Of a stretch of DNA of 64,000 bases, positions 14,328-17,329 are shown piece after piece. Made by a program: the position numbers and the translations under genes. This DNA comes from Escherichia phage AV119. Within the stretch, counting starts at the first letter, position 1. Every line of letters starts with the position of its first letter. The DNA is taken from sequence record OR352949.1; one strand, 5' to 3'. Below the pieces are notes generated by a model that was given only the letters and a program-made list of their open reading frames with translations, was not told the DNA's origin and searched no databases.

Positions 14328-14644
14328 AAGTCCTCAACTTGAAAATCGTCTTTAAACAATCGGTTAACTATATGAGCTATTATATCACCATGACACGGCT
14401 TTGGTTTACATGTGCATCCTAGCCTCATTCCACGTAAAGGCTCTAAATGTGCTTTAGTTATTTCTCCGGATTTAATTCGACGTATAAAATCTTTTTTGAA
14501 TAATTCAATGGCAGCCTCCCGGCTGCCAGCATCTTTACCGACGTAATTTCCCCAAAATGTACCGCGGTGAATATTGACATCAAAGTCGGATTTATATTTA
14601 TTCACTACCTGGCATAGACGGCCCGCGCGGTGATAATTCGTCAT
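14318..14644 (-). CDS. hypothetical protein (108 aa) with [11 protein letters not shown] motif, nrdA.1-like
   Basis: ORF overlapping nrdA start; Cys/His cluster. Confidence 0.55.
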
Positions 14645-14873
14645 ATTGTTTTTCCGTTAAAACAGTAATATCATAGTAACAATCAGAAGAAGTTTTAACT
14701 GTAGAAATTTTATTATCAAAATACTCACGAGTCATTTTATGAGTATAATATTTTTTGCCATAAATGATAATAGGCTGATTTGGTCCTGGAACTTCTAGCT
14801 CACTTGGATTAGGAAGTGTAAAAAGAACTGCACCAGAAGTATCTTTAAATCGTAAAATCATATATCCTCGCAA
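14598..14873 (-). CDS. hypothetical protein (91 aa), nrdA.2-like
   Basis: co-oriented ORF between td and nrdA. Confidence 0.5.
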
Positions 14874-14884
14874 TTAAATTGAAA

Positions 14885-15745
14885 TTACACCGCCATCTTT
14901 CCTTTAATTGGCGGGTGAGATACATAGTTGTTAAGAACAAAATTATGCGGCTTTGCGAATTGACTCAACCAAAATACCTGTGATTCTGTACCCCATTCAT
15001 CGAATTCATCTGGAAATTTTAATTGCAATTCGCATAAATCCATAGATTCACGACGCAAAATTTCTTTACATTGTTCTACGTGATTCATATAGATATGAGT
15101 ATTACCACCAGAAAATATCAAATCTCCCGGAATAAGATTACACATCTTAGCTACAATATGAACTAACGCAGCGTATGATGCAATGTTGAATGGCAAGCCC
15201 AAGAACACGTCAACACTTCTTTGATACCACTGTAAATCCAAATAGCCATTACGCACATTAAACTGATAGAACATATGACAAGGAGGTAATGCCATTTGCT
15301 TAAGTTCTGCCGGATTCCATGCTGAAACAATTTGACGCCTATCATTTGGCAGTTTTTTAATACGATCAATAACTTCTATAATTTGGTCTACACCGCCAAA
15401 ATCACGCCATTGTTTTCCATAAATTGGACCAAGTTCACCGCTATGGTATCCTAAATCTTTTGCTTGATTTTCGTAATTTTCATCCCAGACTGTTTTGCCT
15501 TGAATTAATGAATTATGTTGAATTAATCGCAAATCATTTACGTTAGTACTTCCTGATAAGAACCACAATAACTCAGAAATACATGCATTCCAGGCGAGCT
15601 TCTTAGTTGTTACTGCAGGAAAACCTTTAGTTAAATCCCAGCGTAATTTAGTACCGAACAAAGCAATTGTTCCTGTGCCCGTTCGGTCATCAGTTTCATA
15701 GCCATTTTCAAAAATGTCTTTAATTAAATCTTGGTATTGTTTCAT
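14885..15745 (-). CDS. td: thymidylate synthase, uninterrupted (no intron)
   Basis: 286 aa continuous ORF with TS active-site region (PPCH); T4 td has a group I intron at this gene, here the reading frame is intact. Confidence 0.93.
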   Translation of the reverse strand: MKQYQDLIKDIFENGYETDDRTGTGTIALFGTKLRWDLTKGFPAVTTKKLAWNACISELLWFLSGSTNVNDLRLIQHNSLIQGKTVWDENYENQAKDLGYHSGELGPIYGKQWRDFGGVDQIIEVIDRIKKLPNDRRQIVSAWNPAELKQMALPPCHMFYQFNVRNGYLDLQWYQRSVDVFLGLPFNIASYAALVHIVAKMCNLIPGDLIFSGGNTHIYMNHVEQCKEILRRESMDLCELQLKFPDEFDEWGTESQVFWLSQFAKPHNFVLNNYVSHPPIKGKMAV

Positions 15746-15790
15746 TTAGTACCTTATATAAATTATAATACATTTTATGAAGCTAAATAA

Positions 15791-16150
15791 TCAATACGGT
15801 TTAGCATCAAATTTTCTCTCAATTTCAGGCGTGAAATATAATTCTTTACCGCGTTTGGAAAAGCGACCAATAATATGATAATTATTCTCATCAAACGTGA
15901 TATTACCAATATCCATAGCTTTCAACCAAATATCGATATTTCTATCCAGCTTTATGTCAAAATTCCAATACGGAGAACTATTACCGAAAATACTGCAAGC
16001 GGATTCAGTGAAACAACTGCTATAAATCTTGTCTTTAGGAACTACTAATTGATAGACACCTTTAATAAACTGAGGACCCTGCCACTTTGGCTGTTTCGCG
16101 TCTTCTTCTAATAGAATAGGGTAATAATTAAAATTCATATTTTCCGCCAC
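15791..16150 (-). CDS. hypothetical protein (119 aa; GTG at 16150 or ATG at 16138) inserted between frd and td
   Basis: ORF fills a 410-bp interval where I recall T4 frd and td overlapping; no recognisable motif. Confidence 0.5.
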   Translation of the reverse strand: MAENMNFNYYPILLEEDAKQPKWQGPQFIKGVYQLVVPKDKIYSSCFTESACSIFGNSSPYWNFDIKLDRNIDIWLKAMDIGNITFDENNYHIIGRFSKRGKELYFTPEIERKFDAKPY

Positions 16151-16158
16151 GTGTTATT

Positions 16159-16985
<827 letters not shown>

Positions 16986-16996
16986 ATTGCCTCCTA

Positions 16997-17329
16997 TTAA
17001 AAAGGATCAGTAACATATCCGCTAGCTTTAATCATTTTAATTAACGTTAACATTCCTTTGTTAACTGCTCGTGAGATTTCATCAAAAACTTCATCACTAA
17101 AAAGTTCTAACACGCCCTTCTGAACTTTTAATTTACAGCCAACAATTTCGTCATCTCCTATAGTAAATTCGCTTCCGCCAATTCCGCCGAAAAACTTAAT
17201 TACGCCAGTTAACTGTCTTCCACGAGAATATGGGTCGTGTGATAAAGTAATATGAGTCACCCCAGGTACAGTTTTAAATTGGCAGCGGATGTTTACTTGA
17301 GCAATTCCAGTTACATGAATGTCAGACAT
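16997..17329 (-). CDS. hypothetical protein (110 aa), frd.x-like
   Basis: co-oriented ORF. Confidence 0.5.
   Translation of the reverse strand: MSDIHVTGIAQVNIRCQFKTVPGVTHITLSHDPYSRGRQLTGVIKFFGGIGGSEFTIGDDEIVGCKLKVQKGVLELFSDEVFDEISRAVNKGMLTLIKMIKASGYVTDPF

Follow-up and report, generated by a model that had tools for sequence, protein, structure and literature searches.

td.1, a PHROG 1928 gene between frd and td in Escherichia phage AV119, lies at a junction where phage T4 carries no gene

A 64,000-nucleotide (nt) stretch of DNA from Escherichia phage AV119 (OR352949.1), referred to here as the window, carries a small open reading frame (ORF) between frd and td, the genes for dihydrofolate reductase and thymidylate synthase. 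Judging from its conservation, this ORF is td.1, a genuine protein-coding gene under strong purifying selection. Our best overall explanation, which combines the identity of the gene with a proposed evolutionary history and a proposed function, has a probability of about 0.7. The window itself is assigned to a T4-like (Tequatrovirus) genome because an 801-nt stretch around td.1 is identical in nucleotide sequence to Escherichia phages 107, BW-1 and AV120, and at least 95% identical to several hundred Tequatrovirus records.

The GenBank records of phages T2H and T6 (AY262132.2 and AY262134.2) already name the ORF td.1 and show it where it lies in the window, after the frd stop and ahead of the td start, with all three genes on one strand. 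The window sequence is 98.3% identical to these over 119 amino acids (aa). td.1 is thus already known as an annotated hypothetical gene and is not new. A tblastn search matched the ORF to 580 phage records. In 362 of these the identity is at least 90%, and T2, T6, the RB3/5/6/7/9/10 group, RB18, RB27 and PST are among them. The td.1 of T2H and T6 and the “hypothetical protein” of about 360 Tequatrovirus records share 95–100% aa identity, the same position and orientation, and the same flanking repeats and spacer. Compared with T2, the window allele differs in a single residue (E12K) and at 13 synonymous sites, a ratio of non-synonymous to synonymous substitution rates (dN/dS) of 0.017, and in nothing else of substance; the junction sequences of the two phages are nearly identical, and the spacer between td.1 and td is identical. 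More distant alleles on two metagenomic contigs (L014 and L015), which are 79% identical to each other and 63% and 66% identical to the window, give a dN/dS of 0.12.

An ORF arising by chance in AT-rich spacer DNA could account for the lack of a motif, the lack of a database function and the uncertain start codon. This reading is refuted by the conservation of the ORF and by the 13 synonymous changes against one non-synonymous change from T2, by homologues at the same position that reach down to 27% identity with residues still invariant, and by a confident AlphaFold2 model; we give it practically no weight.

On the minus strand, which carries all features of the locus described below, the ORF counted mechanically from a GTG at 16150 spans 15791–16150 and encodes 119 aa. 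The preliminary description of this DNA had offered this GTG and an ATG at 16138 as alternative starts, and both are present in the sequence. The ATG is the likely start because GGCGGA precedes it, because annotated relatives begin there (T2, G10400, Killian, TadeuszReichstein and bov10K1) and because bov10K1 has lost the upstream GTG while keeping the ATG. The td.1 coding sequence would then occupy 15791–16138, encode 115 aa and end in a TGA at 15793–15791, and the upstream extension at 16139–16150 is probably an untranslated leader with the Shine–Dalgarno-like GGCGGA at 16148–16143. Upstream, frd (16159–16740) encodes a 193-aa protein with 98.4% identity to T4 Frd. Downstream, td (14885–15745) encodes 286 aa in a single uninterrupted ORF and is intronless, as had been stated. 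The ORF list and the sequence also bear out the single ORF in the gap between the two genes, with 413 nt, rather than the 410 given earlier, separating the frd stop from the td start.

Several public annotations give the td.1 ORF a more specific name. It is labeled “putative homing endonuclease” in KarlGJung, TadeuszReichstein and ValerieMcCarty04, “putative glucose-1-phosphate adenylyltransferase” in BW-1 and pSe_SNUABM_01, “dihydrofolate reductase” in ADUt, ESCO58 and JLBYU31, and “reductase” in ECO78. None of these labels is supported by any search of the present analysis, and the annotations stand without support from it.

Profile comparison places the td.1 protein in PHROG 1928, a family recorded as of unknown function, with a full-length match (E = 9.3e-36, residues 8–115 on profile positions 2–125 of 126). 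Seven named genera have a homologue of 27–45% identity as the first gene after frd: Kanagawavirus (CIP9), Jiaodavirus (JD18), Marfavirus (PWKp18), Gelderlandvirus (STML-198), Moonvirus (Moon), Winklervirus (CHI14) and Kagamiyamavirus (EcS1). In all seven, the start of the homologue overlaps the frd stop by 1–20 nt. In six of the seven, the homologue is followed by a second ORF of 115–124 aa, which shares the motifs LLExDxxQKxW, HGIY and GRFxKxGxxxxF with td.1 and matches PHROG 1928 at 1e-24 to 1e-33. On this resemblance, the second ORF is a tandem paralogue of td.1. It forms a subfamily with an extra insert of 25–38 aa bearing the motif PTIxxY(K/N)xNP, which td.1 lacks, and it usually overlaps its neighbors through its start and stop codons. 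Karamvirus (CC31), Tegunavirus, PM2, Cronus and others also carry the paralogue, while every Tequatrovirus searched lacks it; the copy number is one in Tequatrovirus and Jiaodavirus and two in most other genera. In the sequences compared, the paralogue lies at L002 2832–3191, L004 2790–3143, L005 2809–3156, L006 2787–3134, L007 2814–3188, L008 2814–3185, L014 5332–5673, L015 5020–5364 and L010 4001–4405.

The same arrangement extends beyond cultured phages. Three metagenomic T4-like contigs that reach frd show the order frd, td.1, paralogue, and the two that extend far enough (L010 and L014) continue into td; the Frd of L010 is only 31% identical to that of the window. Across genera, td.1 is 27–43% identical, Frd 45–55% and Td 70–79%. 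When 1.84 billion representative proteins, clustered at 50% identity, were searched exhaustively with a profile, 40 family representatives were returned, all of 95–139 aa except two short fragments. Every member whose context was checked lies in a T4-like phage, and in the complete contexts examined td.1 always comes straight after frd and before td. PHROG 1928 thus looks like a small, phage-restricted family tied to the frd–td interval. Two further observations concern this neighborhood. A distant 139-aa member (P0030) lies at the end of a contig from Logan SRR22022328 (L009, 4001–4420), where it adjoins a nicotinamide mononucleotide (NMN)-transporter gene and a NadR-like gene; the contig stops before any frd or td. 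An additional ORF of 68–69 aa precedes td in Kanagawavirus, Marfavirus and L014, and the L014 copy matches PHROG 9550.

These data bear in two ways on the preliminary description, which had called the ORF a lineage-specific insertion. Its absence from the T4 junction stands, and a secondary arrival in Tequatrovirus is defensible. The term lineage-specific does not hold, given about 362 records at 90% identity or more and homologues in seven other genera and in metagenomic contigs.

In T4 (NC_000866), frd lies at 145109–145690 and overlaps td, which starts at 145112, by 4 nt, leaving no gene between them; this overlap had been stated correctly, and the T4 junction, inspected for the same ORF, is empty. 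The proposed comparative alignment of the frd–td junction shows that T4 and the window differ by a clean 417-nt indel bounded by a direct repeat. The left copy of this repeat (16151–16165, minus strand), TAAATGAAATAACAC, spans the frd stop, and its exact 9-nt core, TAAATGAAA, lies at 16157–16165. The right copy (15734–15748, minus strand), TAAATGAAACAATAC, contains the td start codon, with the core at 15740–15748. The two copies (repeat family D2) are identical at 13 of 15 positions, share the 9-nt core exactly and are spaced 417 nt apart. The left copy resembles a degenerate version of the first 15 nt of td (ATG AAA TAA CAC). RB69, a Mosigvirus, and T4 share the fused junction TATAAATGAAACAATACC, in which the single copy of the repeat is their ATGA overlap, and Mosigvirus-like records gave no td.1 match. 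Because PHROG 1928 genes normally fill this interval in the subfamily, the fused frd/td overlap of T4 and RB69 is its empty state.

The Tequatrovirus junctions are loose, with 20 non-coding nt after frd and 45 nt before td, whereas the genes overlap in every other genus examined. The 45-nt spacer between td.1 and td (15746–15790) is nearly invariant in six td.1-bearing phages and contains promoter-like matches and the td Shine–Dalgarno sequence AAGG (15755–15752). A sigma-70-like match (9 of 12 positions) consists of TTGATT at 15794–15789, an 18-nt gap and TATTAT at 15770–15765; its first hexamer begins just outside the spacer, within the last codons of td.1. By eye, a MotA-box-like AGCTTCA (15784–15778) can also be seen 10–12 nt upstream of a TATAAT at 15767–15762. 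If a promoter in the spacer were active, td would have a promoter of its own, which it lacks in T4. A terminator scan found none between frd and td, and an Rfam search of 14500–17000 gave only a spurious match below threshold.

How Tequatrovirus came to carry td.1 can be read in two directions. At the level of the subfamily, an occupied interval is clearly the rule as judged from the genomes compared. Within this setting, we lean towards a history in which recombination would have returned td.1 to a frd/td junction that had already fused, the donor being a lineage that resembles the metagenomic contigs L014 and L015. Three features of the junction point this way: the looseness on both sides of td.1, found in Tequatrovirus only among the lineages examined; the td-like 15-mer at the frd stop; and the empty junction common to T4 and RB69. 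In neighbor-joining trees, frd groups the window with RB69 (100%) and CIP9, PWKp18, L014 and L015 together (94%), and td.1 groups the window with L014 and L015 (100%) and leaves CIP9 outside, a conflict between the two genes. Within the genus, td.1 is 94.5–100% identical, compared with 86.6–99.7% for the adjacent 350–380 nt of frd and td.

The competing possibility, to which we give somewhat less than even odds, is that td.1 was inherited vertically and was lost in T4 and its near relatives and, independently, in the ancestor of Mosigvirus. Slipped mispairing of the 9-nt repeats TAAATGAAA, or recombination between them, would have removed the gene and left exactly the ATGA overlap. In T4, deletions between short repeats are well known. 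This history is favored by the presence of PHROG 1928 in the frd–td interval across the subfamily, by the 417-nt indel, with its exact 9-nt repeat and one copy left in T4, and by flanks that are 93–97% identical between td.1-plus and td.1-minus phages, with no foreign flank. It nevertheless requires the same deletion twice, in T4 and in RB69, as well as extra events for the non-overlapping frd/td.1 junction and for the loss of the paralogue, and it is at odds with the disagreement between the td.1 and frd trees and with a within-genus diversity of td.1 that is about half that of its flanks.

Several points also weigh against re-import. The td.1 tree has a further irregularity, with PWKp18 grouping with Moon, and the neighbor-joining trees were built from 115 aa. 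The 6-nt extension of the repeat lies only marginally beyond chance (about 0.07 by our own estimate), and, in mechanistic terms, a deletion through the repeats is simpler to achieve than a precise insertion. Two possible relics at the junction were also considered. The first, a remnant of a longer frd 3′ end, in which the removal of 16 nt would yield a terminus VYGGKYEF followed by a stop as in L015, was downgraded because the same bases form the ribosome-binding site of td.1 and because L014 and L015 differ there. The second, a remnant of the start of the paralogue (MLNRI), is a reading forced by the conserved td.1 C-terminus DAKPY and so provides no independent evidence.

Within Tequatrovirus, td.1 is a presence/absence polymorphism, with about 362 records carrying the gene and about 155 lacking it (roughly two thirds present); these counts are rough, as duplicate and related records were counted as they stand. 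Such a pattern between two conserved genes, in an element-rich region that attracts I-TevI, MobE and similar genes, recalls the seg and mob homing endonuclease genes and raises the question of a selfish element, either a free-standing homing endonuclease or a transposon-like insertion, targeting the frd/td junction. The direct repeat at the boundaries resembles a target-site duplication, the three records labeled as homing endonucleases belong to the BASEL collection, and an imperfect 18-nt inverted repeat (I1; 15755–15772 and 16152–16169, 78% complementary) lies near both ends of the td.1 segment. This inverted repeat is AT-rich, stands at the level expected by chance and is most likely a chance occurrence. 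We regard a selfish element as very unlikely. The protein has no nuclease match in Pfam, NCBIfam or PHROG, and its 44 family members show no consistent Pfam match. Invariant positions are occupied by W, G, K, G and F; a conserved set of His, Cys or acidic residues is missing, and the predicted β-barrel corresponds to neither a ββα-metal nor a GIY-YIG fold. Moreover, unlike the patchy, multi-site seg and mob genes, td.1 occupies a single syntenic locus where it has diverged in place to about 27% identity, and it is half their usual size.

More specifically, we rejected homing endonucleases of the HNH, GIY-YIG, LAGLIDADG, His-Cys, PD-(D/E)xK and EDxHD types, as td.1 has no recognizable nuclease domain and no conserved catalytic His, Asn, Asp, Glu or Tyr-Arg residues. 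A transposable insertion was likewise rejected: a direct repeat is present, but the only inverted repeat is the AT-rich 18-mer, and the ORF has no similarity to a transposase. As far as sequence and the predicted fold can tell, td.1 is not a mobile element.

We also considered co-conversion with the td intron as the cause of the td.1 polymorphism. A full td intron occurs in 197 records, 94 of which also have td.1, and the intron, which carries I-TevI, is present in about 65% of td.1-minus records compared with about 26% of td.1-plus records; T6 has the intron as well as td.1. The association is genuine without being strict, and co-conversion was therefore not retained as the cause.

The intronless td of the window shows two stretches of unusual variation. 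Over the I-TevI homing site, at 15176–15235 (minus strand; td nt 511–570), there is a dense cluster of synonymous changes, with 16 differences in 60 nt from the intronless T2 gene compared with 0–2 per 30 nt in adjacent stretches. Examples include Arg CGA/CGC to AGA and Ser TCA to AGT, and some of the variant codons resemble RB69. The cleavage motif is changed from CAACG to CAAAG, which still fits the CNNNG motif tolerated by I-TevI (PMC5009752). Up to td nt 510, phage G10400 differs from the window at only two bases; it has the intron together with a T4/T2-like homing-site sequence. The variant in the window may have been imported as a short patch, or it may be an allele refractory to I-TevI. 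Towards the 3′ end of td, at 14936–15055 (minus strand; td nt 691–810), lies a mosaic patch with 57 mismatches in 90 nt relative to both T2 and T4, preceded by 30 nt with 9–11 mismatches; the rest of td is 93–100% identical. G10400 diverges similarly from the window over this patch.

The earlier statement that the protein has no recognizable motif was borne out, as a Pfam search with the single protein returned no match at E ≤ 10. Searches of Pfam, NCBIfam, PADLOC and the sequences of the Protein Data Bank (PDB) found nothing for either the single protein or a 44-sequence profile. When the 44 family members were compared with Pfam individually, only scattered single-member matches with E of at least 0.011 appeared, none of them to a homing-endonuclease family and one to a CdiA RNase A domain (E = 0.14). 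In the family alignment, W19, G91, K95 and G97 (numbered from the ATG) are invariant, and Q16, G27, Y29, F93 and F102 are nearly so; no catalytic-looking set of His, Asp or Cys residues is conserved.

AlphaFold2, run with the 44-sequence alignment, produced a model with a predicted local distance difference test (pLDDT) of 90.3 and a predicted template modeling score (pTM) of 0.83. The predicted elements are strands at residues 6–12, 27–34 and 38–40/48–50/62–64, a helix at 68–76, and strands at 80–82/86–96 and 99–104. By secondary structure only, this order fits a five-stranded oligonucleotide/oligosaccharide-binding (OB) barrel in which strand 3 is followed by a helix and then strand 4. td.1 is thus predicted to be a small β-barrel with one helix and an OB-like order of strands. 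In a Foldseek search of viral models, all significant matches are uncharacterized, the named ones coming from the T4-like phages PM2, Muldoon, Cronus, Ah1 and phiAS5. Among the closest known systems, we list the OB-fold nucleic-acid-binding domains, namely the RecO N-terminal domain, S1, RPA/SSB, Teb1 and HIN.

We propose that td.1 would share its transcription with frd and td, as part of an early/middle unit for nucleotide metabolism, that its translation would start at its own ATG, and that its product would most likely bind a protein partner or single-stranded nucleic acid rather than act as a catalyst. Downstream of td, on the minus strand, the ORF list contains nrdA.2-like, nrdA.1-like and nrdA ORFs. 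The td.1 protein of the window contains 17% aromatic residues, and most family members are basic, with an isoelectric point (pI) of 8–9.5. A function as a small OB-like binding module is a tentative guess. Other considerations caution against it: the window protein is near neutral (pI 6.6), the adjacency to frd could mirror conserved T4-like gene order rather than a functional link, and in the literature searched in full text neither td.1 nor any ORF in the frd–td gap was mentioned.

As T4 and RB69 do without the gene, td.1 is dispensable. A small, dispensable and variably present gene could instead encode an anti-defense or host-takeover factor that neutralizes a host protein, for example in a nucleotide-depleting or nucleic-acid-sensing defense, in which case the position between frd and td would be of historical origin only. 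Paralogy, exchange between lineages and fast evolution are typical of counter-defense genes, and td.1 has paralogues, shows apparent exchange between lineages and evolves faster than its neighbors across genera. We nonetheless judge this role unlikely. PADLOC gave no match, although this is a weak test because its library consists of defense rather than anti-defense proteins, and selection within Tequatrovirus is strongly purifying, with no sign of arms-race diversification.

A broader conjecture, which we hold to be improbable, is that PHROG 1928 as a whole, with td.1 and its paralogue, would represent an unrecognized OB-like module that either serves deoxynucleoside triphosphate (dNTP) synthesis (Frd, Td, NrdAB and gp32) or counters host defenses directed at nucleotides or nucleic acids. 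If this were true, the absence of the module from T4 and RB69 would explain some of the phenotypic differences between T4 and T2 or T6, and the T4 frd/td overlap would be the scar of the loss of td.1. With a confidently predicted fold and no solved homologue, the family would be a sensible choice for structure determination, along with genetics comparing T2 and T6 with T4. Across the Tevenvirinae, the frd–td interval normally carries one or two PHROG 1928 genes, and the overlap of frd and td known from T4 textbooks is the empty form of that site.
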